64,000 nt of DNA, taken from Candidatus Omnitrophica bacterium UBA6253. GTDB taxonomy: Bacteria > Omnitrophota > Gorgyraeia > Gygaellales > Profunditerraquicolaceae. The notes beneath the pieces were generated by a model that saw only the letters and a program-made list of their open reading frames with translations, did no database searches and was not told the origin of the DNA. The stretch's first letter is position 1; the number at the start of each line of letters is the position of its first letter. Shown here in pieces: positions 19,403 through 39,593 of this stretch. The DNA lies in assembly GCA_002441245.1 (NCBI GenBank), contig DJVP01000008.1, forward strand, positions 234,540 to 298,539, read 5' to 3'. Position numbers and translations under genes: made by a program.

Positions 19403-19410
19403 AATTTTAT

Positions 19411-20886: not shown

Positions 20887-20887
20887 T

Positions 20888-22700: not shown

Positions 22701-23618
22701 ATGAGGCTGAATTTTATTTCTTGTATTATTTTAGGGGTAATTTTTATAGGAGCCCTTGGATGTGATAAAATAAAACTCTCTGTTTCTAAGAAAGCAGAGA
22801 TAATGGAAACAAAAACCGTTCCGGTTGTCCCGCAGGTTAAGGGCCCCATCGTTGCAAAGGTGAATAATATTCCCATTGGATTAGAGGATTTTAACCAGGA
22901 AGTTGAGATTTACAATGCCAATGTCCCCGACGACAGGCCTGAATTAAAGATTACTACCAGGGAACAAAAGGTTAATTATTTAAAAAATGAAGTAGTGCGT
23001 AGAACACTGCTCTATCAAAATGCGCTGGACAAAGGTTTGGACAGGAATGAAGATGTTTTAATGGCGCTGGACAAGACCAAGATGCAACTTTTAGTTATGG
23101 AATTAGTCAAACAGGTTTCGCAAAAAGTCGATGTGTCCTCCAAGGAGATTGAAGATTATTATAATACTTATAAAGAACAACTGAAAGAACCGGAAGAGCG
23201 CCAGGTTATGGAGATAGTTTCTTCTAATGAGCAGGATGCAAGGGATATATTGATTCAACTTTTACAGGGAGGGGATTTTGCTACTCTTGCCAGGACTAAT
23301 TCTAAATCATCCAGCGCTAAGAATGGCGGTGACTTAGGGTTTATTAAGCTAGGAGAAAAATCTCCGCAGTTTGATTCCGTGGCTTTTTCTGATTCTTTGG
23401 AAGTTGGTAAAATAAGCAGTATCTTTAAGACTCCCGATGGATACAGCATAATTAAATTAGAAGGTAAGCGCGGAGGCAAGCAAAAACCTTTATCCGAAAT
23501 GTGGGATGATATTAAAAAAGGGCTTATCTTTTTAAAACAGCAGCAGGTTATTGAAGAGATGATCGGGAAACTTTCCCGCGACGCCAAAATAGATATTTAT
23601 GAAGGGGAGATAAAATAA
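22701..23618 (+). CDS. parvulin-type peptidyl-prolyl isomerase, PrsA/SurA-like probable lipoprotein
   Basis: PpiC domain (NGGDLGFI...FSDSLEVGKIS...TPDGYSIIKLEG). Signal peptide with ALGC lipobox-like Cys. AAGGAGG SD before the ATG at 22701; the track start at 22665 is probably too early. Confidence 0.75.
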   Translation: MRLNFISCIILGVIFIGALGCDKIKLSVSKKAEIMETKTVPVVPQVKGPIVAKVNNIPIGLEDFNQEVEIYNANVPDDRPELKITTREQKVNYLKNEVVRRTLLYQNALDKGLDRNEDVLMALDKTKMQLLVMELVKQVSQKVDVSSKEIEDYYNTYKEQLKEPEERQVMEIVSSNEQDARDILIQLLQGGDFATLARTNSKSSSAKNGGDLGFIKLGEKSPQFDSVAFSDSLEVGKISSIFKTPDGYSIIKLEGKRGGKQKPLSEMWDDIKKGLIFLKQQQVIEEMIGKLSRDAKIDIYEGEIK

Positions 23619-24520
23619 TGGCCATAGAAAAGCAAAAGCTTATTTTAATAAGCGGAGTAGTTCTGGGCATAGTAGCAATTCTAATGACTAAGATATATTT
23701 AGATCAACAGAAGCAGGAGGCTGAGGCCCGGGCAAAGAAATCGCTTGTTAAAATGCAGGCCAATCAGAGTGTGGTTTTGGTAGCCAAACATGATATACCC
23801 AGTGGTTCAGTTATTGAATCTTCGATGATTGATAGTTCAATTGTGCCTAATCAATTTATTCAGCCTCAGGTAGCTACCTCTATAGATAGGGTTTTGGGAA
23901 TGATTAGTTTGGCTCCAATTTCTAAAGGTGAACAGATAAGCCTGTCTAAGCTCTCTAAAGGGCGGAGAGAAAGCGCAGGAAGCAGTTTGGCAGGAAATAC
24001 TCCTGCGGGTAAGAGGGCGATTTCTATTGCCGTGGACAGTATTGCTTCTGTATCTGGCATGGTCATGCCTGGAGATTATGTGGATGTGATTGCTACGTTG
24101 CAAGTTCCTATACAGGGGTCGGATGGGCAGATATCAAGCCAGGTGGCTGTGGTTCCCTTGTTTCAGAATGTTTTAGTTTTAGCCGTAGGCCAGAATACAG
24201 GTTCTGTTGGTAAAACAGGAAGCCGCTATGATGAAAAAGAAACTTCTTCTTCTGGATTGATTACTCTTGCTTTGGGGCCGCAAGAAGCAAATCTTATTGC
24301 TTTTGTCCAAGAACAAGGTAAGATGCGCCTGACCCTGCGTTCTCCAGCAGATGCCAGTGTTGAACAGGTTGTCCCGGCCAGCTGGGAGACTTTATTTCAA
24401 TATATTATGCCTCAACAGAAACCCGTTGAGGTTAAAGAGGCCCCAGTGGTTGATACTGCTACTGAATATGTAGAGGTATTTCGAGGGTTGAAGAAGGAAA
24501 AAGTTTCTCTGTCACAATAA
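23618..24520 (+). CDS. cpaB: Flp pilus assembly protein CpaB/RcpC-like (SAF domain)
   Basis: N-terminal TM helix. The conserved block VLVA(K)xDIPxG is CpaB-like. Its position before the secretin is also CpaB-like. Confidence 0.6.
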   Translation: MAIEKQKLILISGVVLGIVAILMTKIYLDQQKQEAEARAKKSLVKMQANQSVVLVAKHDIPSGSVIESSMIDSSIVPNQFIQPQVATSIDRVLGMISLAPISKGEQISLSKLSKGRRESAGSSLAGNTPAGKRAISIAVDSIASVSGMVMPGDYVDVIATLQVPIQGSDGQISSQVAVVPLFQNVLVLAVGQNTGSVGKTGSRYDEKETSSSGLITLALGPQEANLIAFVQEQGKMRLTLRSPADASVEQVVPASWETLFQYIMPQQKPVEVKEAPVVDTATEYVEVFRGLKKEKVSLSQ

Positions 24521-24599: not shown

Positions 24600-26195
24600 A
24601 TGAGAAAGTTATTTTTTGGCCTATTATTTATTATTACATTTATAACTTTTCTGCCTTTTAAGGGGTATGTTGCAGATGGCGTTGAAGAAGAGGTAAGGCT
24701 TTATATGGGGCAAACCAAGATTATCTCGGTAAGTTCTCCAAAGCGGGTAGCAGTTGGTAATCCTTCGATTGCCGATGTAGCTAATATTGGAAAAAACGAA
24801 CTTACGGTCGTTCCTAAGGCGGCAGGAAATACTACGCTTATTGTTTGGGATAATTTTGGCGAGCAGGCTTATCGCTTAATGGTATTTGCGGAAGATACCT
24901 CTGAGCTTAAACGCCGCATAGACCATATGTTAAAGAAGCTAAATTTACCGGATGTACATACTAGCGCCGAAGATGAAGAGGGTAAGGTTGCGCTTTTAGG
25001 CATGGTTAAGCGTGCGGCAGATAGGGAGCGTATTGCTACTGCCTTAGGGGCGCTTAAAGATAAAACTATTGATTTAATAGTAGTAAAAGAAGAGGAAACA
25101 GTTATAGAGATTGATGTACAGGTAATTGAAGTTAACAGGGGGTCTCAGGATACGCTTGGTTTTACCTGGCCAAGTTCACTGAATTTAACCGAAGTCGGCT
25201 CTCCTGGTATTTCTACTGGCGGGACAACTTGGGGTAAACTATTTCATGTTGTTAACGTAACCAGGGATGCTTTTACCCTTAAACTGGATGCCTTGATTAG
25301 AGATGGTAAGGCGCGAATTCTTTCTAGGCCCAGGGTTTCCTGTCAGAGCGGCAAGGAAGCCAAACTTGTCGTCGGAGGAGAGGTTCCTGTTTTAAGCGGT
25401 TCAGTTACACCTGGTACGAGCGGTTCGACTTCTGTGGGCGCAACTACCGGAGGCTCTGTAGAATATAAGGAATATGGAATTATTTTAAATGTCAGGCCGG
25501 CAATTGAAGATTCTGGACGTATTCATCTTAATCTTGATGTTACTGTCAGCGAGGTTGGGGATGTGGTGAGTACGACTTACGCACTTGCATATAAAATGAC
25601 AAAGCGTACAGCTACAACCGAGCTTTTCCTTGACAATGGGCAAACAATGGCCCTCGGAGGCTTGATTAAGAAAAAATCTACTGAAGAATTAAAAAGGGTT
25701 CCCTGGCTTTCAGATGTTCCGGTATTAGGCCTGTTTTTTAGACAGAGGACTACTTCTCAGGGGTGGAATTCCGATTTATCTAAGGCCGATGATACAGAGC
25801 TATTTATTACTCTTACTCCTCGCGTAATTGAGCAAAAAATGCCATCGAAAGAATTAAGACCGTCAATTTCCGGTACGCCTACGCTTAATGATGATGATAT
25901 AAAGGATCCTGTTGTAAGGTACGCTAGGATTATTCAAAGGAAGATTCTTGAGAACCTTACTTATCCTATAGCAGCTAAAGAAGCAGGTTTTCAGGGTACG
26001 GTAAAATTAAGCCTCAAGCTTTCTGCGCAGGGAGACCTGTTGGATTCAAAAATAAAAGAGCCTTCCAAATATCGTTTGCTCGACGATAACGCGATAAGGA
26101 TAGCGCAGAAGATTGTCCCCTATCCTCCGTTTCCTCCTGCAATAAAAGAAGCTCAACTTTGGGTGGATGTCCCGATAATCTATCAACTGGAATAA
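24600..26195 (+). CDS. cpaC: secretin CpaC/RcpA-like with C-terminal TonB_C-like domain
   Basis: Secretin C-domain (GGLIKKKSTEELKRVPWLSDVPVLGLFFRQ...TELFITLTPRVI). The last ~95 aa, YPIAAKEAGFQGTVKLSLKLSAQGDLLDSKIKEPSKYRLLDDNAIRIAQKIVPYPPFP, match the TonB C-terminal domain pattern. Confidence 0.8.
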   Translation: MRKLFFGLLFIITFITFLPFKGYVADGVEEEVRLYMGQTKIISVSSPKRVAVGNPSIADVANIGKNELTVVPKAAGNTTLIVWDNFGEQAYRLMVFAEDTSELKRRIDHMLKKLNLPDVHTSAEDEEGKVALLGMVKRAADRERIATALGALKDKTIDLIVVKEEETVIEIDVQVIEVNRGSQDTLGFTWPSSLNLTEVGSPGISTGGTTWGKLFHVVNVTRDAFTLKLDALIRDGKARILSRPRVSCQSGKEAKLVVGGEVPVLSGSVTPGTSGSTSVGATTGGSVEYKEYGIILNVRPAIEDSGRIHLNLDVTVSEVGDVVSTTYALAYKMTKRTATTELFLDNGQTMALGGLIKKKSTEELKRVPWLSDVPVLGLFFRQRTTSQGWNSDLSKADDTELFITLTPRVIEQKMPSKELRPSISGTPTLNDDDIKDPVVRYARIIQRKILENLTYPIAAKEAGFQGTVKLSLKLSAQGDLLDSKIKEPSKYRLLDDNAIRIAQKIVPYPPFPPAIKEAQLWVDVPIIYQLE

Positions 26196-26196
26196 A

Positions 26197-28356
26197 ATGG
26201 CCAAGGTAATAGCTATATTCAGCACAAAAGGCGGCGTAGGCAAGAGTTTAATTGCGGTTAATTTGGCCGTGACTCTGGCTAAAGAAGGCAAGAAAGTTTG
26301 TGCGATAGACTTAGATACGCAAGTAGTCGGAGATATGGCGCACATGCTTGGCATTAATCCCCAGAAATGTATGGCGGATTTAATGAGTTTTTTAAGAAAG
26401 CAGCCACAGTTAACCAAAAAAACAGATTTTATTATTAAAACTAAAATTACTAACATAGATTTCCTAGCCGGATTATTGAAGCCGCAACAATCCGGATATC
26501 TTTATCCGGATAAACTTGCAGAAGTATTTAACCTTTTTGATAAAGATTATGACTATATTATTGTTGATGTAGGCAAAAGCTTCAGCGATGTATTCCTTTC
26601 TGTATTAAACCAGGCCAATCTGATTCTTCTGGTGGTTACCCCTGACGTGCTATCCGTATACCAGACAAAATGGGCGTTAGACACTTTGCAGTTCTTGCAT
26701 TTTCCTTTAAGCATGATCAAGCTTGTGCTCAACCGGGCGGAATCAGCTTCAAGTATAAGCTGGCAGGAGATCCGTGTCAGCTTGCCGGTAGATATTATTG
26801 CAAAGGTCCCTTCCGAAGGTAGATTGGTTAATCAGGCAGTTAACCAGGGGGTACCCATAGTTATCGATTCCCCCCGCTCTAAGATCTCTTTAGCTGTTAC
26901 TAGTCTTGCGCACACACTTATTGAAGACAAGGAGCTTTTTATAGAAAGAAGGAACCTTGATCAGATTAAGATTAAAGAATCAGCCCAGGAGAAATCCGGG
27001 CAGTTCTGGGCAGGCCAGGATTTAGAAGAGTCGGTGATCGAGCCCGACGCTGCCGAAGACAGGGATGAGATTTTAATTCTTAAGCGCAGGATACATACCC
27101 GGTTGATTGAGGGCATGAATATCAAGAGGTTGGATCTGAAGGTTTTTAGTGACCATAAAAAGACCAAAGAATTAAGGGATAGGGCAGAGTTAACCGTGTC
27201 AAATCTTTTGGTTGAGGAGGCGGGAAGTTTTATCCCTTCCCAGGAAATAAGAAAGAAGCTTATCAAGGAAATCCTGGATGAGGCCTTGGGGCTAGGTGCC
27301 CTGGAAGATCTTTTGGCTGATCCAGACATCACTGACATTATGGTGAATAATAAAAATGAGATTTTTGTTGAACGCTTTGGCAAGATTGAAATGACCAGTA
27401 AGAAATTTATTTCTAATGATCAGGTCAGGACGATTATTGAACGTATTATCGCTCCCATAGGAAGGCGTATTGATGAATCAGTGCCCATGGTTGATGCACG
27501 ACTTGCCGATGGCTCGCGTGTAAATGCGATTATTTCCCCGCTTTCTTTAACTGGCCCCACTCTTACAATCAGGAAATTCCGCAAGGAAAGATATAAGACT
27601 GTCGATTTGGTTAATTTCGGAGCGCTTACTTTGGAAATGGCGGACTTTATCAGGGCTTGTGTTTTTTGCCGTAAGAACATGATTGTTTCTGGAGGTACTG
27701 GTTCAGGAAAAACCACTGTACTTAATGCCCTTTCAGAAAATATCCCTAATGATGAACGTATTGTTACCCTAGAAGATGCGGCGGAGTTAAAATTAAGTCA
27801 ACAACATTGGGTCAGGCTTGAGTCCCGTCCGCCTAATATTGAAGGCAAGGGCGCCGTTACCATAAGAGACCTTTTTCGCAATACCCTGCGTATGCGTCCG
27901 GATAGGATTATCGTCGGTGAATGCCGCGGCACCGAATCTTTGGATATGCTTCAGGCAATGAATACCGGACATGATGGATCAATGACAACGATTCATGCTA
28001 ATTCAACCTTTGATGTTTTATCGCGGTTGGATTCGATGATTCTTATGTCCGGCATAGAACTTCCTGTAAGGGTTATCCGTGAAATGATTTCTTCTGCGGT
28101 TGATATAATCGTCCACACTGCCAGGCTTTGTGACGGATCGCGTAAGATTACGGCTATTTCCGAGGTTTCCGGGATGAAAGACGAATTACATATAAATTTA
28201 AATGACATATTTATCTTTAAACAAACTGGAATAGATGCCAACGGGAAGGTCCAGGGGTATTTTACCGCCACTGGCCATTTGCCTTCTTTTCTTGAGGAAG
28301 TCAGGATTCGCGGCGTCAAAATCTCCGACGACATTTTTAAGCCCACCAAACCATAA
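26197..28356 (+). CDS. cpaF: fused CpaE-like (ParA/MinD ATPase) and CpaF/TadA (secretion ATPase) protein
   Basis: N-terminus has the deviant Walker A KGGVGKS. C-terminal part has Walker [10 protein letters not shown], Walker [10 protein letters not shown], His-box [13 protein letters not shown] and the CpaF N-domain motif [21 protein letters not shown]. One 719-aa ORF. Confidence 0.8.
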
Positions 28357-28362
28357 AAAATA

Positions 28363-28707
28363 ATGCGCTTAATCAATCAAACCAGGGGCACTGTTTTGGC
28401 GAAAGATATTGTTTTTGCAAATACTCCTTTCAAGAGGCTAAAGGGGTTATTGGGTGATAAAAGTTTCTTGGATGGGCAGGCCCTGATAATCAAGCCGTGT
28501 AATTGCGTGCATACCTTATTTATGCGTTTTTCAATTGATGTTTTGTTTGTGGATAGTAATAATAAGGTAGTTAAGGCTTTAGGCCAGCTTGATCCTTTTA
28601 AGTTCAGTAAAATGTATTGGAATTCGAAAAAGGTTGTGGAATTACCATCTGGTAAATTAAAATCCACTCAAACTCAAGATGGCGACTCACTCCAGTTTTT
28701 AGATTAA
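28363..28707 (+). CDS. DUF192 family protein
   Basis: RLKGLLG...IIKPCNCVHTLFMRFSIDVLFVD...ELPSG matches the DUF192 (COG1430) pattern. Confidence 0.55.
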   Translation: MRLINQTRGTVLAKDIVFANTPFKRLKGLLGDKSFLDGQALIIKPCNCVHTLFMRFSIDVLFVDSNNKVVKALGQLDPFKFSKMYWNSKKVVELPSGKLKSTQTQDGDSLQFLD

Positions 28708-28793: not shown

Positions 28794-31085
28794 GTGGGTG
28801 TAGTCCATAAATTAAAACCAGAAATAATTCAATTTATTCTTGATAATAAACAAGCCAATCCGCATTTAAGCTGCCGCAGCTTAACTACTATGTTGCTGGA
28901 AAAATTCCAAGTTAAAGTTTCTAAATCAAGTATAAATACTATTTTTAAACAAAACAATTTGAGTATGCCTGTGGGCAGGCGTCAAAAACCAAAGAAAAAG
29001 AAGTTTAATATGCCGGCTTTGCCGGTTATTGAAAGTATTAAGACTAATGCGTCTAACGAGGAGTTTCAGAAAAACACTTTGGAAGAGGGGCCTGAGATTC
29101 AGGAAAAGGCAAAGGGCGAAATTACAGAAGAACAACGTATACAGGAAGCAGAGGGCTGGGCAGAAAAATTATTGGAGAAGGAGCATGAACGGCTTGAGCA
29201 GGAAAGGTTGACCCGAGAGGCTCAGGAAAAAAAATCCGAGAATGATGCGATTGAAGAGGATTTGCTGAGGCTGCAGAAGATACAAGAGGAAGAAGACTTA
29301 AGGCGTGAAGAATTAGCTAGGCTTAAGCTTAAAGAGGAGGCTAAGTCTACAGGGGAGCCGGAAAGATTGGCCCAGGAAGAAGAGGCGCAAAGGAAGGCAG
29401 AAGAAGAAAGGTTTGCTAAAGAAGAAGCTGAGAGAAAAAACGAAGCAGAAAAACTCATCAAGGCAAAAGCCGATGCTGAGCTTAAAGAACAAGAGGCTTT
29501 ACGCAAGATTGAAGAGGAGAGAATGCAGGAGGAGCAGTTGAGGCTGCAGAAGATACAAGAGGAAGAAGACTTAAGGCGTGAAGAATTAGCCATGCTTAAG
29601 CTTAAAGAAGAAACTAGGTTGAGGGAAGAGCAGGAAAAACTGGCCAGGGAAGCGGAATTAAAAGCAGAGCATGAACGTTGGGCGCGGCTATCGGAGGAGG
29701 AAGAGAAAAGAAGAAAAAAAGCATTTAATGCCTCCCAGATTGCCAAAGAGGAGGCTAGTGTTGAGTTTCATGCCGGATCATCGTTACCCAAGGAATGTAC
29801 AGGAGCAGTATTATTAAAAGCAATTGACCATTTGATAAAAGGAAGCGTTCAATTAAGTGAAGCTATCCAGAGAAGGTTAGGTTACCCTAAAGAAGAAGTT
29901 GAGGCATTAACTCAAACTTTGATATTCCAGGATATTGTGGGCAATGAGCCGGGCGCCTTAAGCGCTATAACACGCAATGAAATAAGCACTGATAAGTTAT
30001 CGGGTTATTTTACCCAACTCCAAGAGTTAAAAACCATGAAGCTTGATTTATCGCGCCTTTTGGCAAACATATTTACCCAGAGCCGGGGGATCAAGATGCA
30101 TTTTATCGACGGAAGCGTAGTTTATCTTGATGCACAGATGCATACGGTATGGCCTACTCCTTATATGCCCCATGATTTTTCTGCGACAGTCACCAGCGTA
30201 AAGGATTGCATAAACCGGTATTTCTTTAAGGATGGAAATTTAGTCTTATTTATGGCTCCCGGCTATGACATCCCCACAAAAGAATTCTTTACACTGTTGG
30301 TTAATTTTAATTCAAAACATGAAACGGCAGACAATCTTATTTTATACGGCAATAAACTTGATGAATTAGAAAATATTGCTTTAAACCCAGAAGGAAATCA
30401 TAATCTCCTGTTTGCGTTATGGCCCTGGCAATTTACCGCTTACCGAAAAGTAAAAAGAATCGGTGAATTCAGTTCGCAGTTTGTTGATTGCATGAATAAA
30501 GAATTTTATTTGGCAGAGATTGAAATTGAGCTTGTGCAGCCAACAAACATGCAATCGTTTTCACTAAGGGGATGTGCTATAAAATTAAGTTTGGCCGAGA
30601 AGATACGGCTGGTAGTTTTGAGTACCGATGGGTCCAGGGACCTGGTTTCCCTGGCCAATGATTATCTTTGCCGTTGGCCAAACCTTGATGAAGGTCTCCA
30701 TGATTTTAACCGTAAAATTGAATTATTCAGTTGCACGGGGGAATCTCAACAAGTCTTTGCATATGAAGAGCTGCCAATAGGTAAGAGTGAACCAATTGAT
30801 TTAAAGTCTATTTTCTCAGGTTACTCCGAGGCTTTGGATGCTTATTTGAGATGGCATTTTATGCCGCCTGGATATGAAAAAACAGAATTTAAACTAAACA
30901 GGGAACGTTTTTACAGCCAAAAGGCACAAATAATTCAAGGTAAGGACAAGATACAGTACCTTTTTAGTGTTATTAATGATTATGCCTATGCAAAAGACTT
31001 GGAATATATATGCCGAAGGCTTAATGAAAGGGATATACATACTGATGACGGGCAACGAGTTTGTTTTGAAAGCGGTTTCAAATAA
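28794..31085 (+). CDS. large coiled-coil protein with an N-terminal HTH-like domain and charged E/K/R repeats
   Basis: N-terminal ~60 aa look helix-turn-helix-like. Then ~250 aa of ER/EK heptad-like coiled coil with an internal ~91-aa repeat. The C-terminal ~430 aa domain is unrecognised. Confidence 0.4.
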   Translation: MGVVHKLKPEIIQFILDNKQANPHLSCRSLTTMLLEKFQVKVSKSSINTIFKQNNLSMPVGRRQKPKKKKFNMPALPVIESIKTNASNEEFQKNTLEEGPEIQEKAKGEITEEQRIQEAEGWAEKLLEKEHERLEQERLTREAQEKKSENDAIEEDLLRLQKIQEEEDLRREELARLKLKEEAKSTGEPERLAQEEEAQRKAEEERFAKEEAERKNEAEKLIKAKADAELKEQEALRKIEEERMQEEQLRLQKIQEEEDLRREELAMLKLKEETRLREEQEKLAREAELKAEHERWARLSEEEEKRRKKAFNASQIAKEEASVEFHAGSSLPKECTGAVLLKAIDHLIKGSVQLSEAIQRRLGYPKEEVEALTQTLIFQDIVGNEPGALSAITRNEISTDKLSGYFTQLQELKTMKLDLSRLLANIFTQSRGIKMHFIDGSVVYLDAQMHTVWPTPYMPHDFSATVTSVKDCINRYFFKDGNLVLFMAPGYDIPTKEFFTLLVNFNSKHETADNLILYGNKLDELENIALNPEGNHNLLFALWPWQFTAYRKVKRIGEFSSQFVDCMNKEFYLAEIEIELVQPTNMQSFSLRGCAIKLSLAEKIRLVVLSTDGSRDLVSLANDYLCRWPNLDEGLHDFNRKIELFSCTGESQQVFAYEELPIGKSEPIDLKSIFSGYSEALDAYLRWHFMPPGYEKTEFKLNRERFYSQKAQIIQGKDKIQYLFSVINDYAYAKDLEYICRRLNERDIHTDDGQRVCFESGFK
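29266..29613 (+). repeat. intragenic direct repeat, two ~70-nt copies (52 nt identical) with 273-nt period
   Basis: tgaggctgcagaagatacaagaggaagaagacttaaggcgtgaagaattagc occurs at about 29266 and 29539. Confidence 0.7.
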
Positions 31086-31270
31086 GCCCTAAATTAGCTT
31101 GATTAGCCCATTTTATAATGTTATATTTAAGTGTGATTAAGAGAGGACATAGTCTGTAGGGAGGAGAGAGAAACAGCATGCATACGCCACGGATGCATAA
31201 GAAATTTCTTTTTAGGCAGAGTTTCGTCAGATTTTTTATATTATTTGATATGATGGCTGTGTCTTTGTTA

Positions 31271-31300
31271 GCCCTTGCGCAAAAGGGCTTTTTCTATTTT
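31271..31300 (+). terminator. rho-independent terminator-like hairpin (GCCCTT gcgcaa AAGGGC + TTTTTCTATTTT)
   Basis: 6-bp GC-rich stem, 6-nt loop, U-tract. It lies between the coiled-coil gene and the first pilin gene. Confidence 0.5.
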
Positions 31301-31333: not shown

Positions 31334-31498
31334 ATGAAAAATCCTAGATTTAGAAAAGGGCAAAGCGTTATTGAATACGCCATGCTGATTACTATCGTCG
31401 CTGCGGCTTTAATGGCGATGTCTGTATATATAATGCGTTTAATCAATGTGGGGTCTCAACAAACGCAAAAAGAATTAAATTATTGTTGGAATAAATAA
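31334..31498 (+). CDS. flp: Flp/Fap-family pilin (class III signal peptide), 54 aa
   Basis: MKNPRFRKGQSVIEYAMLITIVAAALMAM. The G-x4-EY Flp motif is followed by a hydrophobic helix. GGAGG SD. Below the ORF-track size cutoff. Confidence 0.7.
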   Translation: MKNPRFRKGQSVIEYAMLITIVAAALMAMSVYIMRLINVGSQQTQKELNYCWNK

Positions 31499-31515
31499 TT
31501 TTAGGAGGTGAGAAA

Positions 31516-31683
31516 ATGAGGAGATTTTGCAAGGGGCAAAGCACGTTGGAGTACGTAATTATTTTAGCAGCTGTAGTAGGGGCGATTATCGCGGTCGCTG
31601 CGGCATTGAAACCAAAATTGACCGGCACTTATGATACGCTGGGTAATAAGATGCAGGATAAGGTGAACGAAGTAAACTTCTAA
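31516..31683 (+). CDS. flp: Flp-family pilin, 55 aa
   Basis: MRRFCKGQSTLEYVIILAAVVGAIIAV. AGGAGGTG SD 5 nt upstream. Confidence 0.7.
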   Translation: MRRFCKGQSTLEYVIILAAVVGAIIAVAAALKPKLTGTYDTLGNKMQDKVNEVNF

Positions 31684-31696
31684 GGAGGTGAATGAA

Positions 31697-32020
31697 ATGT
31701 TGAGGTTAATGCGAAAAGGGCAAAGCACGGCAGAATACGCAATCGTTATCGGCTTAGTTATCGCTGCGGCAGTAGCCATGCAGATTTATGTAAAACGCAG
31801 CCTGCAGGCGAAAGTCAAAGATGCGGTAGATTATAATGATCCGGCAGCGACAATGTTATCCACCAGTCAGTATGAACCGTATTATTTATCGTCCGACATG
31901 ACTAATACCCGTAAAGAATCAACCACTGCTGCTACTACTACTGGTGGTGGAGTTACAAGAACTATTAATGAAGATGAGGCCAACAGGACCGGAACGCAAA
32001 ATATAAGTGCAGTTGAGTAA
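31697..32020 (+). CDS. flp: Flp-family pilin with Thr/Ser-rich C-terminal extension (107 aa)
   Basis: MLRLMRKGQSTAEYAIVIGLVIAAAVAMQ, then a T/S-rich tail (STTAATTTGGGVTRT). The likely start is the ATG at 31697 after AGGAGGTG. The track start (GTG at 31688) lies inside the SD. Confidence 0.7.
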   Translation: MLRLMRKGQSTAEYAIVIGLVIAAAVAMQIYVKRSLQAKVKDAVDYNDPAATMLSTSQYEPYYLSSDMTNTRKESTTAATTTGGGVTRTINEDEANRTGTQNISAVE

Positions 32021-32070
32021 GATTTAAGACAGTATTTACGATTAAGTTACTTTTTAAGGAGGTGAAAGCT

Positions 32071-32376
32071 ATGTTTAGGCGTAGTTCTCGAGGGCAAAGT
32101 ACTTTGGAATATGTTATTTTACTCGGTTTTGTGGTTGCGGCGTTGATTGCTATGGGCATCTATATGAAACGTGGGTTTCAGGGTAAATTGAGGGAATCTA
32201 CTGATCAGATTGGTGAACAATATTCTGCTGGTAATACCACTTCGGAATATACTACTACTACTGACATGCAGCAGAATGAGGTTGTGAGCCCAGGCGGAGT
32301 TTCCACGACGACTATCTCAAAGAATCAGCAGATCCGGACAGGTAGTGAAACAGTTAGTGCGTTAAGCGCGGAATAA
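32071..32376 (+). CDS. flp: Flp-family pilin with Thr/Ser-rich C-terminal extension (101 aa)
   Basis: MFRRSSRGQSTLEYVILLGFVVAALIAMG, then TTTTD...STTTIS. Start after the AAGGAGGTG SD; the track start at 32062 is a GTG inside the SD. Confidence 0.7.
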   Translation: MFRRSSRGQSTLEYVILLGFVVAALIAMGIYMKRGFQGKLRESTDQIGEQYSAGNTTSEYTTTTDMQQNEVVSPGGVSTTTISKNQQIRTGSETVSALSAE

Positions 32377-32412
32377 TAAGAGCTGCGATTAGCATTAATG
32401 AAAGGCTTTGCA

Positions 32413-32565
32413 ATGAGGATAGAACGAAAGAAGGCACAGTCTATACTTGAGTATGTTATTTTGTTTGGGGTACTGACTGCGATGGTAGGGGTTACGCTGA
32501 TTGCTGCCTCTTCCGGTGGCGGGCAATTGCAAAGCGCGCTTAAAAGTTATATTGACGGCAGCTAA
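32413..32565 (+). CDS. flp: Flp-family pilin-like, 50 aa (Ala at the -1 position of the motif)
   Basis: MRIERKKAQSILEYVILFGVLTAMVGVTLIAA. Weak RBS. Confidence 0.55.
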   Translation: MRIERKKAQSILEYVILFGVLTAMVGVTLIAASSGGGQLQSALKSYIDGS

Positions 32566-32612
32566 CGGAGTATCTTAATAAGCGGTTTGAATAAAATCAT
32601 ATAGGCGGTAAA

Positions 32613-32765
32613 GTGAGAAACAAGGCGCAAAGTATAATTGAATATGTGATAATTATCAGCGTGGTTGCAGCTGCGGTTGTAGCTATGCAGACATATTTTA
32701 AGCGGGCAGTTAATGCCCGGCTTGAAGAGATTAAACAGGAGTATGTCCCTAAGGTTGCTTCATAG
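32613..32765 (+). CDS. flp: Flp-family pilin-like, 50 aa (GTG start, Ala at -1)
   Basis: V/MRNKAQSIIEYVIIISVVAAAVVAMQTYFKR. Weak RBS. Confidence 0.5.
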   Translation: MRNKAQSIIEYVIIISVVAAAVVAMQTYFKRAVNARLEEIKQEYVPKVAS

Positions 32766-32815
32766 GACTGAGCGAGAGGATAAAGATTTCCTGTTAATTT
32801 TTAGGAAAAGAAAAT

Positions 32816-33106
32816 ATGTTTATAAAAAAAAGAGGGCAGACACTTCAGGAGTATGTTATATTATTGGCCTTGGTGACTACAGCTTTTATTGCTATGCAGG
32901 CTTATATGAAGCGTGGCGTACAGGGCAGGCTGCGGGATTTGGCTAACCAGATTAGTTCTAAACAGTATGAGCCTAATGATACGACTTCTCAAACCGGAAT
33001 AACGCGATCTGGAAGTTCTACCGAAAAAGAACATTTAGGTACTTATACGAACCAAGGTTCTGATACAACCAAAACCAATTATGAGTCAACTACTGTGGAG
33101 GAATAA
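32816..33106 (+). CDS. flp: Flp-family pilin with Thr/Ser-rich C-terminal extension (96 aa)
   Basis: MFIKKRGQTLQEYVILLALVTTAFIAMQAYMKR, then a S/T-rich tail. Confidence 0.7.
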   Translation: MFIKKRGQTLQEYVILLALVTTAFIAMQAYMKRGVQGRLRDLANQISSKQYEPNDTTSQTGITRSGSSTEKEHLGTYTNQGSDTTKTNYESTTVEE

Positions 33107-34112
33107 AGAGTTGGTATGGGGTAGAAAAGCTCAGGCATTATTAGAATTGGCGTTATTTTTAGGTATTATGCTTATGGTTTTGCTGGCGGCACTGAGCTAT
33201 CAAAGGAATTTGCGCGAACAAAAACTGGCTGATGAAGATGTCTTTGACCAGGCAAAAATTAAAGCCTATAATCATAAATTCACTGAAAAAGATATAGACG
33301 GAGAGACCTTTGAATGCTCCGGCGCGATTGTAAGTTATAGCCTTAATGCTGACCGTCAGGCAACCCGGATCTTCCAGGGGGGGCAGCGTCGCACTGCTGC
33401 CAGCTCCGCTTCAGTGTATTACTCAAACGCAGAAGACCCGCCAAATTTAGAGTATAATTATTACAATTCTACTGATATTAGTAGCGGAGAAGAAGCGAAA
33501 AAGCTATACTATGACCGTCCGGGCGGTACCGAAGATCCGGAAGACGGCTTAAAGCTTTCTACTGCTGATTATTTCTGCGCAGTATACCCGTTGCTTTCTA
33601 CTATGGCCCAGGGGCTCTTTAATTTAGAAGATACCGGTAGCTGGTGGGCAGAATGGGGAAGTTTCCTTGATTTCTCAATCCGTTTAGTTTGTTTCTTATA
33701 TCTTTCTGAACGCATGTATGAAGCCTTGGATAAGATTGAAGAGTCAGAAGCAGAGAGAGATAAACTTGAAGCTCAAGATGAACAAATGGGGGAATGGGGA
33801 TGGCGAGTTTGCGATGAGGTTCATGATGGTTCTTCGCTTGCCGGCAAGAAATATGTCAAAGAGATAACCCCGCAGGTGTATGATATAGAAACTGAGGAAG
33901 ACAAGAGCATTAATTATAATGAAACTCAAGATGCAAATTCAAGTATCCGCTCAGTACTCGTAGGACATAAGGTTAATCGTAAAATTTCGCGTCGTTATGA
34001 TGTAACTGTACCTGATCCAACCTTGCCTTTGGCCAGCCATACATTTGAGAACCTCGGGGAAAAAGAAGTTACTGTAGATTTAAGTGGAGGACAAAGTGAG
34101 ACCTGGAATTAA
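33081..34112 (+). CDS. TadE-like pilin-like protein / minor pilin candidate
   Basis: The N-terminus, WGRKAQALLELALFLGIMLMVLLAAL, has a pilin-like K-A-Q-x-x-x-E motif and a hydrophobic helix. The true start is uncertain: TTG at 33111 follows a GGAGG SD and avoids overlap with the upstream pilin gene. Confidence 0.5.
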   Translation: MSQLLWRNKELVWGRKAQALLELALFLGIMLMVLLAALSYQRNLREQKLADEDVFDQAKIKAYNHKFTEKDIDGETFECSGAIVSYSLNADRQATRIFQGGQRRTAASSASVYYSNAEDPPNLEYNYYNSTDISSGEEAKKLYYDRPGGTEDPEDGLKLSTADYFCAVYPLLSTMAQGLFNLEDTGSWWAEWGSFLDFSIRLVCFLYLSERMYEALDKIEESEAERDKLEAQDEQMGEWGWRVCDEVHDGSSLAGKKYVKEITPQVYDIETEEDKSINYNETQDANSSIRSVLVGHKVNRKISRRYDVTVPDPTLPLASHTFENLGEKEVTVDLSGGQSETWN

Positions 34113-34248
34113 AGATAATAATATAGGAATCTTTCGGCAAAAAGCACAGGTAATTTTAGAAGCAGTGCTTGCTTTGACTATGCTGGTACTATTTATATTA
34201 GGGGCGATGGCTATCTTAAAGAGCGCGAATCAATAGGGAGATTAGTGT

Positions 34249-35568
34249 ATGAATATACTTTTTCATAAAATGCGCACAGGTAAAAAGGGGCAGATTATTG
34301 CTGTTTTGACCCTGGCCCTGGTTATCTTCGTTATTGCCGCCTTCCTTGTGGTAAATTTAGGAAAGACTAAAATCCAGGATAACAAAGTTAAGAATGCTGC
34401 TCAGTCAGGAGTGCTTGCCGGAGGCTCATCCGCCTGCATCATGCTTAATTCTATGGCCAATATTAATGATCAGATGGTCCTGAATTTTGCTGGTTTTACT
34501 CTTATGATACAGCTTTTATTAGTTGCCTGGATCATAGATTTTGTGAAAACTATTATTGTCGCCTATGATGTTCTTATCGCTTATAACTGGGAGGCCGGAG
34601 TAGACCTTGATCTTGCGGTATTGACGCTATGTCTGACCTCTGCGACTATGGCGCTTATGATTGAAGGCGCCACCAAGGTAGGTAATTCAATTAAAAAGAT
34701 GATTGATGAAATAAACGATAAGCTTCCTAAAAATAGCCGGGATTCTGCCCGTCAATACGCTTTCTCAAACGTTGGCGTAGACGAACCCAAGGTGCCATTT
34801 TCTAAATCCGGTTGTTCGGATGCCTGGTGTTATTCATTAATTGAGACAAAATTTGATGAGTTTATGCGTGTGCTTCCGGCAAAAAATAAAGCAGATATGA
34901 ATTATGGCACCAGCACTATAGATTTTGATTGGAATGATTCTCGTACCGAGCATATTATAAATAATAAGATTGAGGTAACGGTTACTCCCGTGCAAAAGGT
35001 GCCTTTTCGCTTGGTAAGATTCGGCGAGGTAGCTAGTGAATCCGGAGAGATTATTGATTATTTAAGCCAACAGTCCACGGGTATTTTGGGGCCTCTTATA
35101 ACGTGGGGAGTATATACAGCCGATATGATTATTATTATGTGTTACTCAATTGCAGTATTGATGGTAGTCCTTTCTGCTTGTTTGGTTGTCGTTGCTGCGA
35201 TTTGTACTATGTGGGCAGCATCCTATTGGACAACTTGTTTTAGCTGCAGTTGGGCTTATTGTGCTTGTTGTTGGGCATGTCCTTTAGGGGCATATTATAC
35301 TTTTGGTGCTACTATGGTGTTAATTGCTGCAGCCCTTGCGGCTTCATTAGTTCTTACTTCTCCCGAGGATATACCTTGTTTTGTCTGGGAGCAAAGGAAG
35401 GAACACCCTCTTCAGGTAGAAGTTACGAGGACTACTAATCCGTCAAGTGTAAATTATGGCATATATACTACGGATTGGCCGGTTCATAAGCAATCAGCAT
35501 CCGGGATAGTTAAGGATGGGACCATATTTCCTCCGAATCAAAATTTTGATATTATACCAAATTTTTGA
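34249..35568 (+). CDS. TadG-like protein (TadE/G N-terminal domain) with Cys-rich hydrophobic C-terminal region
   Basis: KKGQIIAVLTLALVIFVIAAFLVVNLGKTKIQDNKVKNAAQSGVLAGG matches the TadG N-terminal pattern (...LQNAADAAALAGA). The C-terminus has CFSCSWAYCACCWACPLG inside hydrophobic segments. Confidence 0.55.
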   Translation: MNILFHKMRTGKKGQIIAVLTLALVIFVIAAFLVVNLGKTKIQDNKVKNAAQSGVLAGGSSACIMLNSMANINDQMVLNFAGFTLMIQLLLVAWIIDFVKTIIVAYDVLIAYNWEAGVDLDLAVLTLCLTSATMALMIEGATKVGNSIKKMIDEINDKLPKNSRDSARQYAFSNVGVDEPKVPFSKSGCSDAWCYSLIETKFDEFMRVLPAKNKADMNYGTSTIDFDWNDSRTEHIINNKIEVTVTPVQKVPFRLVRFGEVASESGEIIDYLSQQSTGILGPLITWGVYTADMIIIMCYSIAVLMVVLSACLVVVAAICTMWAASYWTTCFSCSWAYCACCWACPLGAYYTFGATMVLIAAALAASLVLTSPEDIPCFVWEQRKEHPLQVEVTRTTNPSSVNYGIYTTDWPVHKQSASGIVKDGTIFPPNQNFDIIPNF

Positions 35569-35610: not shown

Positions 35611-36405
35611 ATGATGAAGCAAAAAGCCTTCTGCTTAAGACTATTTTTTATTATTTCTTTTGTCCTGTTTTTATCTGAAACGGTTTTTGCCGAAGTACCA
35701 ATTCCCTGGGGAGCAAAACTTATAAGGGATGATGTAGCAGTTGCCGGCAACGGAGAAGAAAGAAAAATAGCTTCTTATGAAACAAAGGCCAGTAAACAGG
35801 AGTTGCTTAATTATTATCTTAGAGAGATGCCCGGGCGGGGTTATAGATTATTTATGAATGGCGAGCAAAACCTTGTTTTTAGTAAAGCAGAAGAATTAGT
35901 TATTGTGGTTGTGCCTTCAACCCAGGCTGGTAAAACCAGTTTTATGGTTAGTACCGCTCCCATGAAAACTCTCCTTGGCAAGGATAGCTCTTATAGCGCA
36001 GGGGTTAGTTGCGAGCCTATTCCTTCTGTTCCTGTGTATTCTGGGGCACGTTGCATGAATTCAACACGTTTAAAATCAGGTGGGTCAAGATCGGTAGCGT
36101 ATTCTATCGAAGAACCTATTAGTGTTGTGCTTGATTTCTATCGCAATCAAATGCCACGATATGGCTGGCAATTAGAGAAAGAAAATAACCTTGAAGACAT
36201 TATGTCTAAGGTTACGCCGGGGCAACAGCAGACGAAAATTACTCCGGAGCAACAGGCAGCGATGCGTAATCTTCTTGGAAGCGCGCATGGGATGTTTTTT
36301 GCTAATCAAAAAGGAAACAGTTGTTTTGTGCAAGTAATGAATAATCCGACAAATAAAGAGGCCTCTATAGCTAGTATTATCTATGAAGATAAGACATCAA
36401 AATAA
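35611..36405 (+). CDS. secreted hypothetical protein
   Basis: Signal peptide MMKQKAFCLRLFFIISFVLFLSETVFA. No motif recognised. Confidence 0.4.
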   Translation: MMKQKAFCLRLFFIISFVLFLSETVFAEVPIPWGAKLIRDDVAVAGNGEERKIASYETKASKQELLNYYLREMPGRGYRLFMNGEQNLVFSKAEELVIVVVPSTQAGKTSFMVSTAPMKTLLGKDSSYSAGVSCEPIPSVPVYSGARCMNSTRLKSGGSRSVAYSIEEPISVVLDFYRNQMPRYGWQLEKENNLEDIMSKVTPGQQQTKITPEQQAAMRNLLGSAHGMFFANQKGNSCFVQVMNNPTNKEASIASIIYEDKTSK

Positions 36406-37174
36406 TAAATTATCCCAGTCAACAATGGCCTACATAATATTTATCATTATTTTAATTGGGGCCTTTTCAGTTATGATACCTAAAATCCGGCAGAGATTGC
36501 AGGCTTCCTATAAAGAATCTGCTGATACCTTTGGCGAAGGCAGGCAGTTTGGCTCTCTTTCTACTTCTGGCGGTGTTGCTCCGTTTGTATTCCCGGTTTT
36601 GCCCGGCAGCGGGCAGATTGATGTGCCTACTCCTCCTCCTGTTGATAATCCCGAGTGTGATCCGGACTATTTGAATTCTTTATTACAGGAGGCGTTAAAC
36701 AAGCAAGAGATTTTCTCGAATTTATCTCAAGAGGCAGGCGATGCCAATTCAGCAGCAATCAAAGCGGAAGAAGAAGAGGAAGCAGCAAAAGAAGCGGCTC
36801 GTATCGCTAAAGAAGAAGCAATCCAGGCTCGAGAGGAAGCTACTGCTGCCCGCCAAGCAGCTAATGCTAAACAGTCAGAATGTAATGATTGTAAATATGG
36901 GGAATGGGGTTTTGGGGTTTGGGGAGGTTGTGAAGCTATCTGTGATGAGGCTGAAAGTTTAGCAGAGGAGGCTACGATAAAAGAAGGTGTAGCTACAGAG
37001 AAAGAAGGAATAGCTGTTGAGAAGGAGGCAATCTCTCAGCAGAAACAGGCAAAAGCCCGTGAATTAGAAGGAATAGCAATTGAAAAGACACAAATAGCTG
37101 CACAGGCGGGAGAAGAAGCAGCGGCTGCTGCTGAAGCATTGCAGAAGGCAAATGCAGACTGTCTTGGCGCATAG
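36383..37174 (+). CDS. pilin-like hypothetical protein with degenerate class III signal-like N-terminus, coiled coil and C-terminal Cys cluster
   Basis: KLSQSTMAYIIFIIILIGAFSV resembles the KGQSTLEYVIL pilin motif but lacks the Gly and Glu. An EEEEAAKEAARIAKEEA coiled coil is followed by CNDCKYGEWGFGVWGGCEAIC. The start is uncertain (alternative ATG at 36425). Confidence 0.35.
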   Translation: MKIRHQNNKLSQSTMAYIIFIIILIGAFSVMIPKIRQRLQASYKESADTFGEGRQFGSLSTSGGVAPFVFPVLPGSGQIDVPTPPPVDNPECDPDYLNSLLQEALNKQEIFSNLSQEAGDANSAAIKAEEEEEAAKEAARIAKEEAIQAREEATAARQAANAKQSECNDCKYGEWGFGVWGGCEAICDEAESLAEEATIKEGVATEKEGIAVEKEAISQQKQAKARELEGIAIEKTQIAAQAGEEAAAAAEALQKANADCLGA

Positions 37175-37213: not shown

Positions 37214-38059
37214 ATGGTTTTATTGCTTAGTATTGTGATTTTGTGTTCAATTATTTTGTTATCTTTGAGCATCCTGCCTTTTTTCATGCAAAAGATACAA
37301 TCCTGGCAGCAAAAGCAGGAGGTTTTAGTTGCTAAAGAAATGGATAAGATGTTTTATGATAAGAGCCCTAAGAGGATTGCCATGCTTTATTATATCCTTC
37401 CCATTTTCTTTGGGCTTAGCGGGCTCATCTTTTTACGTTCACCGTTTTTTATGATTTTTGGCGCGCTTATCGGCCTGGCTACGCCAAGCTTAATTCTTAA
37501 GATGCGTTTTAAACGCAGAGTCCAGAAATTCAACGACCAGCTTTTGGATTCTATTAACATGCTTACTAGCTGTTTAAAAGGCGGCTTAAGCTTATTACAG
37601 GGGATTGAAGTATTGGTGGAAGAGATGCCTGCGCCAATTAGCCAGGAGCTAGGTTTGGTGGTAAGGGAAAATAAAATGGGTATTTCTTTAGAGGAGAGCC
37701 TTGTCCGGCTGAATAAAAGGATGAATCTTGAGGAACTTGGCTTGGTGGTTAACGCGCTCTTAGTTGCCCGTGAAACAGGCGGGGAGTTGACCAAGGTTTT
37801 TAGCCGCCTAAGTGTGACTATAAGGGATAATCACAAACTAAAAGAAAACATAAAAACACTTACTTTGCAGGGGAGAATGCAAGGGTATATTATGTCGTTT
37901 TTGCCGATTATATTTGTTGCCTGGGTCCTTTCAGTTAATAAGCACCATTTTGATATTATGATGAATAATGATTTGGGCAGGATGCTTTTGGTGGGGGCGG
38001 TGATATTGCAGGTTTGTGGAATGTTTCTTATCAGGATGTTTAGTATAATTAAAATATAA
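37214..38059 (+). CDS. tadB: Flp pilus assembly inner-membrane platform protein TadB (T2SSF domain)
   Basis: LSLLQGIEVLVEEMPAPISQELGLVVRENKMGISLEESLVRL...LLVARETGGELTKVFSRLSVTIRD is a GspF-like domain flanked by TM helices. Confidence 0.75.
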   Translation: MVLLLSIVILCSIILLSLSILPFFMQKIQSWQQKQEVLVAKEMDKMFYDKSPKRIAMLYYILPIFFGLSGLIFLRSPFFMIFGALIGLATPSLILKMRFKRRVQKFNDQLLDSINMLTSCLKGGLSLLQGIEVLVEEMPAPISQELGLVVRENKMGISLEESLVRLNKRMNLEELGLVVNALLVARETGGELTKVFSRLSVTIRDNHKLKENIKTLTLQGRMQGYIMSFLPIIFVAWVLSVNKHHFDIMMNNDLGRMLLVGAVILQVCGMFLIRMFSIIKI

Positions 38060-39020: not shown

Positions 39021-39593
39021 AAGCAAAAGAGATTTTATTATGCCAGGGAGTCAAGATTAATTCCGCAGCATGGAGCGTTGCATGTAATATGCAGAGGAAA
39101 TAATAAGAGGAAGGTGTTCATAAAGGAAAATGACTATGAATATTATTACCATTGTCTTGTTAAATTGAAGAAAGAAGAAGGGGTAAAGATTTATCATTAT
39201 TGTTTGATGCCTAATCATCCACACCTTTTGGTTGGGGTTGAGGAGGGAAGTAACCTTTCGCATTTTATGTAAAGAGTAAATGGGAAATATGTATATTATT
39301 ATAAGAAGCGACATAAGTACATAGGCCACCTTTGGCAAGATAGATTTAAGAGCAGGATAGCAGATGATGAGGGATATTTAGCTCAATGTGGAAAATATAT
39401 AGAGCTTAACCCGGTAAGAGCCAAATTAGTAGATTTTCCAGAAGAGTATAATTTTTCAAGCTATTGCCATTATGCTTTTGGAACGAAAGACGTGCTTATA
39501 GATGACAATCCTCTATTTCTGTTTTTAGATGAAGATCCTCTTAAAAGATCTGTCATTTATAGAGAAATAATCCGCGCAGAAATGATGTTGTAA
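39021..39593 (+). pseudogene. IS200-like / REP-associated tyrosine transposase (RAYT, COG1943-like) pseudogene with in-frame TAA and no canonical start
   Basis: One frame reads ...ARESRLIPQHGALHVICRGNNKRKVF...YHYCLMPNHPHLLV (HUH motif)...SHFM-TAA(39270-39272)-RVNGKYVYYYKKRHKYIGHLWQDRFKSRIADDEGYLAQCGKYIELNPVRAKLV.... This matches the RAYT pattern (PQHxxxRGNNRQ, HxHLL, WQxRF, YIxxNPV). No in-frame ATG lies upstream of the conserved N-terminus. Confidence 0.65.

Follow-up and report, generated by a model that had tools for sequence, protein, structure and literature searches.

Tad (type IVc) pili, exemplified by those of Aggregatibacter (Flp1) and Caulobacter (PilA), are assembled from small, all-helical prepilins of ~50 to 80 residues that carry a class III signal, Glu and Tyr at positions 5 and 6 of the mature protein, and an N-terminal hydrophobic helix. 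The corresponding loci encode TadA, TadZ, TadB, TadC, RcpA/CpaC, and RcpC/CpaB. Bacteria of the phylum Omnitrophota are ultra-small, abundant, and uncultured and are thought to live as predators or parasites. Seymour et al. (2023) reported Tad clusters in this phylum and tied them to a predatory lifestyle and to giant open reading frames (ORFs). The locus considered here, including its "small class III signal genes," had been recorded by West-Roberts et al. (2023), and a 2026 preprint reports the same association between Tad and giant genes. We analyzed a stretch of 64,000 nucleotides (the window) from Candidatus Omnitrophica bacterium UBA6253 (assembly GCA_002441245.1, contig DJVP01000008.1, positions 234,540 to 298,539), in which an array of seven small genes lies inside such a cluster. 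Our reading, to which we assign a probability of about 80%, is that the seven genes are the prepilin repertoire of a Tad pilus machine conserved across a large clade of Candidatus Omnitrophota. The machine is a known one in a known setting; the type of signal peptide and one class of subunits depart from the bacterial Flp paradigm.

The origin of Tad systems has been traced to an archaeal Epd-like system, and the tadV gene can be encoded away from the cluster. In Methanococcus maripaludis, the EppA-dependent (Epd) pilins are made with leaders of 5 to 13 residues, have the cleavage sites KG/QV, KG/QL, KG/QI, and RA/QI (slashes mark the scissile bond), and carry Glu at +5 without Tyr at +6. EppA requires Gln at +1 and accepts EpdA (RA/QI) as a substrate. 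According to reviews, bacterial class III leaders "invariably" end in Gly, archaea excepted; the PilFind paper places bacterial cleavage "at a glycine or alanine." Among predatory bacteria, the Kil Tad system uses one major and 14 minor pilins.

The array consists of seven consecutive ORFs of 50 to 107 codons on the plus strand (P1 to P7; Table 1). All seven are present as listed in an earlier note drawn from the sequence alone, which also correctly placed four of them (P1, P2, P5, and P6) below 60 residues. Each ORF encodes a short basic leader, the motif [KR]-[GA]-Q-[ST]-x-x-E-Y, and then a hydrophobic stretch of ~20 residues. The N termini aligned as a family (MAFFT) with invariant Gln, Glu, and Tyr, so that Gln at +1 and the combination of Glu at +5 and Tyr at +6 ahead of a hydrophobic helix were found in 7/7 proteins; the residue at position -1 was Gly in five and Ala in two (P5 and P6), also as claimed. 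The strict motif occurred seven times in the window versus a mean of 0.0 in 200 shuffles. In 1.28 Mb of related DNA, a looser form matched 458 times on the TadA strand and once on the other. Aligned with the orthologous arrays of the two closest relatives, the seven genes had 52, 38, and 154 substitutions at codon positions 1, 2, and 3 in one comparison and 85, 75, and 250 in the other. The 3- to 4-fold excess at the third position was present in each gene taken singly, indicating that the seven ORFs are real coding genes under purifying selection.

The array is enclosed by a complete Tad/Cpa cluster, the RcpC/CpaB, secretin, TadZ-TadA, TadB, and TadC components of which were identified by Pfam matches well above threshold. 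The cluster runs from a PpiC-type rotamase through RcpC/CpaB, the secretin, the TadZ-TadA fusion, a DUF192 protein, and a coiled-coil protein to the seven pilins, followed by four further proteins, TadB, and TadC. The designation Flp-type pilins is appropriate, in the sense of Flp-like type IV prepilins within a Tad/Cpa cluster. A TadZ-TadA protein identical to that of the window is encoded on a 225-kb contig of the metagenome-assembled genome GCA_028718365.1 (Candidatus Omnitrophota), and relatives with 52 to 94% identity were found in 80 species-level genomes. These are labelled Omnitrophota or Omnitrophica except for a set of third-party annotation (TPA) assemblies labelled "uncultured Planctomycetales" and one genome labelled "bacterium." We compared these 80 loci over 10 kb on either side of TadA. 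The fusion is kept full-length in nearly all of them, and 5 to 11 small pilin genes lie downstream of it in every locus long enough to cover the region. The conserved order comprises a divergent FIST-histidine kinase-GGDEF module, then PpiC, CpaB, secretin, TadZA, DUF192, coiled-coil protein, pilins, variable large pilin-like proteins, TadB, and TadC.

A giant ORF of >7,835 codons follows the Tad cluster and runs past the end of the window; a giant gene likewise starts after TadC in at least two other loci (L023 and L081). This arrangement is compatible with a type II secretion-like pseudopilus, in which the many pilin-like proteins would build a short scaffold or piston for export or display of the giant protein. 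West-Roberts et al. describe the locus as resembling a type II secretion system, with a conserved position upstream of giant genes, and in the 2026 preprint secretion or pilus genes flank 13 of 14 giant genes. All the recognizable parts, however, are of the Tad type, namely, RcpC, TadZ, TadB and TadC as split proteins, and a secretin bearing the pilus N-terminal domain. The subunits have the size of Flp pilins and carry Glu5-Tyr6. The giant protein, for its part, contains a C39 peptidase domain in its N-terminal region, a feature typical of other export routes. We regard a pseudopilus as unlikely, with the proviso that it cannot be separated from an extended pilus by sequence alone.

The residue preceding the cleavage site sets the clade apart. 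Among 404 pilin genes of the related loci, position -1 was occupied by Gly in 200, by Ala in 190 (47%), and by Ser in 10, Ala reaching 54% in the best-conserved long class. Position -2 was Lys or Arg in 84% of these genes (84 to 86% across samples), and leaders of 5 to 9 residues in the window compare with mostly 4 to 13 residues (mode, 7 to 8) in the clade. The larger pilin-like proteins of the clade also vary at position -1 (29 Gly, 20 Ala, and 4 Ser). An independent sample was obtained by an exhaustive profile search, from which the 149 top representatives at 50% identity were retained. With a pattern that did not require Gln, the motif was found in 147 of these; all 147 had Gln at +1, Gly or Ala preceded it in 92 and 54, respectively, and the median leader length was 9 residues. 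Reciprocal best matches further revealed swaps at position -1 between close orthologues of P2, P4, P5, and P7 (Table 1), and the orthologues of P6 in 21 loci had Ala in 8 and Gly in 13. Judged from these comparisons, Gly, Ala, and Ser are interchangeable at this position and Ala is normal in the clade, implying that the processing enzyme would have to accept all three.

The earlier note had considered Ala at position -1 as an anomaly. It does depart from the textbook Gly-only rule, to which P5 and P6 are exceptions, but within the clade it is almost as frequent as Gly and is moreover allowed by the PilFind paper. The Ala-containing proteins (P5, P6, and the 343- and 46-residue proteins encoded downstream of the array) might nevertheless be uncleaved, either as membrane-anchored, nonpolymerizing proteins or as decaying copies, as the reviews would suggest and as the small number of detectable P5 orthologues (four) might hint. 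The abundance of Ala among clade pilins, the exchanges between orthologues of the same paralog, the third-position substitution excess in all seven genes, and the processing of archaeal EpdA by EppA make this very improbable.

Read from the sequences, the Omnitrophota signal is an archaeal Epd-type leader combined with the Glu5-Tyr6 pair of bacterial Flp pilins. It shares with the Epd pilins the leader length, the KG/Q and RA/Q sites, Gln at +1, Glu at +5, the Flp-like size, and the presence of several pilin genes per system. It differs in that Epd pilins lack Tyr at +6 and belong to monoderm archaea without a secretin, whereas all seven proteins have Tyr at +6 and belong to a diderm bacterium with a secretin and RcpC. 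Compared with Flp/Tad prepilins, the leaders are distinguished by their length of 5 to 9 residues, Lys or Arg at -2, an invariant Gln at +1, and Gly or Ala at -1 about equally, and the locus contains no tadV. At the E <= 0.01 level, 25 of 81 sampled clade pilins matched Pfam Class_IIIsignal (best, 3.6e-6), as against four matching Flp_Fap and three TadE. The Epd family (Class_IIIsignal/DUF361/UPF0333) thus provides the best, though subthreshold, Pfam matches, and several homologues are labelled UPF0333 by the Joint Genome Institute (JGI). The archaeal-like character suspected in the earlier note is therefore apparent on the substrate side, since [KR][GA]/Q, Glu at +5, and the short leader match EppA-dependent pilins. 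Together, the Epd-type signal and the predominance of Class_IIIsignal matches fit the published archaeal Epd-like origin of Tad.

The second departure concerns subunit size. Four of the proteins have 50 to 55 residues, whereas P3, P4, and P7 have 96 to 107 residues, about twice the size of the others and of usual Flp/Tad pilins, with C-terminal tails of 57 to 67 residues in which Ser and Thr account for 28 to 35% of the residues versus 12% in neighboring proteins, in agreement with the tails described in the earlier note. Database homologues of P4 and P3 are 59 to 100% identical over nearly the whole length (a protein identical to P3 is on record from a contig of 312,917 bp), and the three paralogs have in common a Q-Y-E-P block, a Gly-Gly turn, and an R/K-T-G-S/T block near the end. 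AlphaFold models of two paralog families (P3 and P4) have the same topology, in which the N-terminal helix leads into a beta-hairpin of two strands, each of ~17 residues (helix 11 to 47 and hairpin 64 to 80/86 to 103 in the P3 model). Conservation and the predicted hairpin indicate that the tails are neither free linkers nor low-complexity sequence in free drift, and the polar character of the strands makes a surface-exposed hairpin the simplest reading. We regard the tails as a conserved domain, predicted to form a long beta-hairpin. The long-pilin family comprises 1,619 clusters at 50% identity (E <= 1e-10), nearly all of 97 to 153 residues with full-length matches, and has no curated model. 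None of the seven proteins matches TadE (PF07811), and the long class, at ~100 residues, is shorter than TadE and TadF (~150 to 200 residues).

Because of their composition, the tails might serve mainly as carriers of O-linked glycans, an idea put forward in the earlier note, attached for instance by the PMT-family GT-C glycosyltransferases encoded 14 to 25 kb upstream. The enrichment in Ser and Thr, the presence upstream of two PMT/PMT_2 proteins, GT2 enzymes, and many radical SAM enzymes, and the fact that pilin O-glycosylation is common in other type IV pili all speak for this role. Thr, however, is a strong beta-former, so that the composition alone does not imply glycosylation. In addition, the blocks QYEP, GGG-V-T-R-T, and RTG-T/S are kept across ~1,600 clusters in a region with a predicted beta-hairpin, and none of the other loci compared had the PMT/GT2/radical SAM cluster in the 10 kb preceding the Tad cluster. 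A connection between that cluster and pilin glycosylation was rejected for this lack of synteny. Tails serving mainly as glycan carriers are, on the whole, somewhat unlikely; glycosylation of a folded hairpin is possible.

The seven paralogs are 31 to 53% identical at the protein level and, over the motif-coding part only, 60 to 78% identical at the DNA level. Individual paralogs have orthologues in 12 to 50 other species-level loci, with the exception of P5. The low identity and the presence of orthologues in up to 50 loci indicate that the duplications are ancient. The sequence AGGAGGTGA is found at only three sites on the plus strand of the window, before P2, P3, and P4. It is part of TAAGGAGGTGA upstream of P3 (at 31682) and P4 (at 32056), and P2 is preceded by TTAGGAGGTGA, with the full AGGAGGTGA Shine-Dalgarno site at 31503. 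Most other genes of the window have a weak Shine-Dalgarno sequence or none. The earlier note had pointed to these near-identical ribosome-binding cassettes, which do exist before P2 to P4, and had taken them as evidence of tandem duplication. That interpretation is not supported, since the paralogs have diverged and Shine-Dalgarno sites are enriched clade-wide: matches of at least 7 nucleotides to the core precede 31% of the clade pilin genes (44% of the long class) versus 6% of background ORFs. The enrichment points to selection for strong translation rather than to a footprint of duplication, and the most likely reason for the shared AGGAGGTGA sites is a high rate of translation of abundant structural subunits. 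For the same reasons, we consider it extremely improbable that the array arose by recent tandem amplification or is a cassette system for antigenic or phase variation. The tandem arrangement and a common 36-nucleotide 5' region of P3 and P4, which is 78% identical and includes the ribosome-binding site, would be expected from amplification, but the divergence of the paralogs and the wide occurrence of orthologues other than those of P5 would not. Nor does the array contain long repeats, promoter-flanking inverted repeats, or a recombinase gene.

Three results weigh against the proposed role of the array as the repertoire of a Tad pilus. First, all seven proteins remain below the curated thresholds of the pilin families in Pfam and NCBIfam, the latter giving no significant match. 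The best window matches to Class_IIIsignal (PF04021; threshold, 23.7 bits) were P2 (19.3 bits; E = 0.0011) and P4 (18.8 bits), and the sole match to Flp_Fap (PF04964; threshold, 32.2 bits) was P6 (18.2 bits; E = 0.0022). Second, confidence in the hairpin is moderate for P3 (predicted local distance difference test score [pLDDT], 75 to 81) or low for P4 (50 to 64), and no structural analogue was found in the PDB, with nothing below E = 2. The weak PDB matches were generic long hairpins from toxin stems and phage tails; since the pilin hairpin is polar, we discarded the idea of a membrane-inserting stem. A resemblance to the staphylococcal G5 domain at the sequence level (E = 1.5) was not significant. 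Third, we found no A24 prepilin peptidase gene, whether across the 64 kb of the window, in the adjoining 10 kb upstream, or at a distance of up to 10 kb from TadA in any of the 80 loci. This search combined a Pfam scan of window ORFs of at least 100 residues with a regular expression for the active-site motif G-x-[GAS]-D-x-[KR] applied to hydrophobic ORFs of the window and the 80 loci. Clustering of all polytopic ORFs of the window and the loci revealed that only TadB and TadC recur, and a Pfam scan of ten plausible membrane ORFs of unassigned function returned M50, EamA, CDP-OH transferase, and TrkA_C matches but no A24. The absence of a linked A24 gene implies that the peptidase gene must be unlinked, as is allowed for Tad systems and is partly the case for Kil. 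We infer that the peptidase is encoded elsewhere in the genome.

For the Tad pilus reading, the following sequence of events may be envisioned. The basic leader, ending in Lys or Arg and then Gly or Ala, would be removed before the invariant Gln by an A24-type prepilin peptidase tolerating Gly, Ala, or Ser at -1; by analogy with the M. maripaludis pilins, the exposed Gln may be cyclized to pyroglutamate. Judging from gene content, TadB/TadC would pull the mature hydrophobic helix, with its Glu5 and Tyr6, out of the inner membrane, and TadZ-TadA would polymerize the pilins, leading to extrusion through the CpaB/secretin channel. Short pilins (mature, 42 to 48 residues) would be Flp-like, consisting mainly of the N-terminal hydrophobic helix, and long pilins (mature, 89 to 99 residues) would add the predicted polar, Thr/Ser-rich hairpin, which would lie on the filament surface. 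The larger, fast-evolving class III signal proteins encoded downstream probably form a priming or tip complex, by analogy with TadE/F/G and the tips of the Myxococcus Kil system. P2, P3, and P4 are the most widely conserved paralogs and alone in the window have a full consensus ribosome-binding site, which makes them the best candidates for abundant subunits; their abundance and the division into major and minor pilins are guesses. The placement of the hairpin on the filament surface is likewise a guess, as is a cooperation of the giant protein with the pilus in host contact.

A more far-reaching and rather doubtful possibility is that these systems form a distinct Tad branch. Its ancestral Epd-type signal would be served by an unlinked, EppA-like peptidase specific for Gln at +1, and abundant pilins of ~100 residues would have their hairpins joined into a beta-sheet coat around the helical core. 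If so, the coat would be a filament architecture undescribed for Tad pili and could serve in prey contact with the giant protein.

Table 1. Features of the Tad locus and its surroundings. Coordinates are window positions. Slashes mark the predicted cleavage site. Orthologues are reciprocal best matches in the related loci; for P2, P4, P5, and P7, the residue at -1 in the window is given first, followed by that in the orthologue and the percent identity.
Feature	Coordinates	Strand	Length (aa)	Class III signal	Mature (aa)	Remarks
FIST-domain protein, histidine kinase, and response regulator with GGDEF	18467-22111	-				Divergent from Tad operon
Small protein	22413-22658	+	81			Two hydrophobic segments; no family match
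PpiC-type rotamase	starts 22665					First gene of cluster
RcpC/CpaB pilus assembly protein	23618..24520	+				Pfam RcpC, E 1.2e-24
Secretin (RcpA/CpaC type), C-terminal TonB_C domain	24600..26195	+				Pfam Secretin 1.7e-39, T2SS-T3SS_pil_N 4.3e-16, TonB_C 4.7e-15
TadZ-TadA fusion ATPase, ParA-like N-terminal domain and T2SSE	26197..28356	+	719			Pfam T2SSE 1.3e-63, AAA_31/ParA
DUF192 protein	28363-28707		114			No transmembrane segment; directly after TadZA in 71 of 81 loci
Coiled-coil protein	28794-31085	+	763			Between DUF192 and pilin array in 60 of 81 loci
Terminator-like hairpin and T-run	31270..31299	+				Between the 763-aa gene and P1
Pilin array	31334-33106	+				P1 to P7
P1, short prepilin	31334..31498	+	54	MKNPRFRKG/QSVIEY	45	Orthologues in 24 loci
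P2, short prepilin	31516..31683	+	55	MRRFCKG/QSTLEY	48	Orthologues in 42 loci, identity up to 96%; Gly to Ala in L008 (83%)
P3, long prepilin	31697..32020	+	107	MLRLMRKG/QSTAEY	99	Thr/Ser-rich tail; orthologues in 50 loci
P4, long prepilin	32071..32376	+	101	MFRRSSRG/QSTLEY	93	Thr/Ser-rich tail; orthologues in 44 loci; Gly to Ala in L021 (71%)
P5, short prepilin	32413..32565	+	50	MRIERKKA/QSILEY	42	Ala at -1; alternative ATG at 32398; orthologues in 4 loci; Ala to Ser in L007 (73%), Ala kept in L006
P6, short prepilin	32613..32765	+	50	MRNKA/QSIIEY	45	Ala at -1; GTG start
P7, long prepilin	32816..33106	+	96	MFIKKRG/QTLQEY	89	Thr/Ser-rich tail; overlaps start of next gene; Gly to Ala in L007 (78%)
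Pilin-like protein	33081..34112	+	343	GRKA/QALLEL		No Pfam or NCBIfam match; fast-evolving
Mini pilin-like protein	34096..34236	+	46	FRQKA/QVILEA		Called as a gene in NCBI and JGI records
TadG-like protein	34249..35568	+	439	KKG/QIIAVL		No Glu5; weak Pfam Tad (TadE/G-like) match at N terminus
Possibly pilin-like protein	36383..37174	+	263	KLS/QSTMAY		Start uncertain; public gene call begins at 36473, without this N terminus
TadB, inner-membrane platform	37214-38059	+				Pfam T2SSF 5.2e-19
TadC, inner-membrane platform	38062-38919	+				Pfam T2SSF 3.9e-15
IS200/Y1-type transposase fragment	39078-39272	+	64 (codons)			Pfam Y1_Tnp, E 5.6e-10
Giant ORF	~40496-64000	+	>7,835 (codons)			Runs past window end

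Downstream of the array lie further proteins with class III signals that were absent from the earlier note's list, namely, those of 343, 46, 439, and possibly 263 residues (Table 1). The 343-residue protein, homologues of which were detectable only in the two closest loci, is a candidate minor or tip pilin. The TadG-like protein has about six hydrophobic segments and a Cys/Trp-rich stretch, CFSCSWAYCACCWAC, which is odd for a pilin-like protein. Upstream of the array, the 763-residue protein has a weak helix-turn-helix-like N terminus, a Glu/Lys/Arg-rich coiled coil of ~250 residues, and an unannotated C-terminal half of ~400 residues. A terminator-like hairpin with a T-run separates its gene from P1, and no such element was found inside the pilin array. 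The DUF192 protein was considered as a candidate missing factor; this was dropped, as it has no transmembrane segment, matched no solved structure by sequence, and was the subject of no useful literature.

The small protein encoded ahead of the PpiC gene recurs in this position in related loci and is called in public records. The FIST, histidine kinase, and GGDEF module occupies the same position in ~30 related loci, and this conservation suggests that the pilus is under cyclic di-GMP (c-di-GMP) control. In the window up to position 17376 and the 10 kb further upstream (L088), the radical SAM enzymes number at least 13, and B12-binding or SPASM domains are present in several of them. The same cluster holds two GT2 and two PMT-family GT-C glycosyltransferases, a methyltransferase, a polysaccharide deacetylase, and GDSL hydrolases. 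On the other side of the Tad cluster, the transposase fragment, probably a remnant, lies in a gene-poor 1.6-kb segment between TadC and the giant ORF. The giant ORF has a Peptidase_C39 domain and glycine-zipper matches near its N terminus. By coordinate arithmetic, NCBI contig JAQUMA010000002.1 ends at approximately position 56170 of the window, so that the giant gene is cut in that assembly.

Two other bacterial systems invite comparison. The predatory Tad-like Kil system of Myxococcus xanthus resembles the Omnitrophota locus, the host of which is likely a predator, in its large repertoire of one major Flp, Flp-like adapter pilins, and large TadE/F/G-like tip proteins and in the contribution to processing of a peptidase encoded outside the cluster. 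It differs in that its pilins are scattered over several loci and have a Gly cleavage motif, KilP is described as fully helical, no beta-hairpin class has been reported, and the linked element is a type III secretion system (T3SS)-like apparatus rather than a giant gene. A Tad-like locus on a plasmid of Moraxella bovis (NZ_CP087831.1) encodes an ATPase 60% identical to the TadA part and a pilin with the site RG/QGMTEY, indicating that the Gln +1 type is not confined to Omnitrophota. This locus also includes a DUF192 gene (L086, 11872-12195) and, downstream, a gene for a 1,516-residue RHS toxin, with no annotated peptidase. Unlike the array described here, it has a single short pilin gene and another gene order, and no long hairpin pilins were seen.

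In the literature searched, we found no description of the anatomy of the array in Omnitrophota, of an Epd-type signal with even use of Gly and Ala, of the long hairpin class and the size of its family, or of the consistent absence of a linked peptidase. The Tad locus beside giant genes is the main genomic clue to host contact in Omnitrophota. Knowledge of its subunits, with two size classes, an invariant Gln at the mature N terminus, and a conserved, predicted surface hairpin, provides targets for metaproteomics, antibodies, and cryo-electron microscopy (cryo-EM) in enrichment cultures. The long-pilin family, with no curated model for its 1,600 or more clusters at 50% identity, is at present annotated as hypothetical. 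The even use of Gly and Ala at -1 means that the rule that bacterial leaders end in Gly is not general and that pilin predictors would miss half of such genes. Finally, the occurrence of an Epd-type signal in a bacterial phylum supports, directly at the level of sequence, the archaeal origin that has been proposed for Tad pili.

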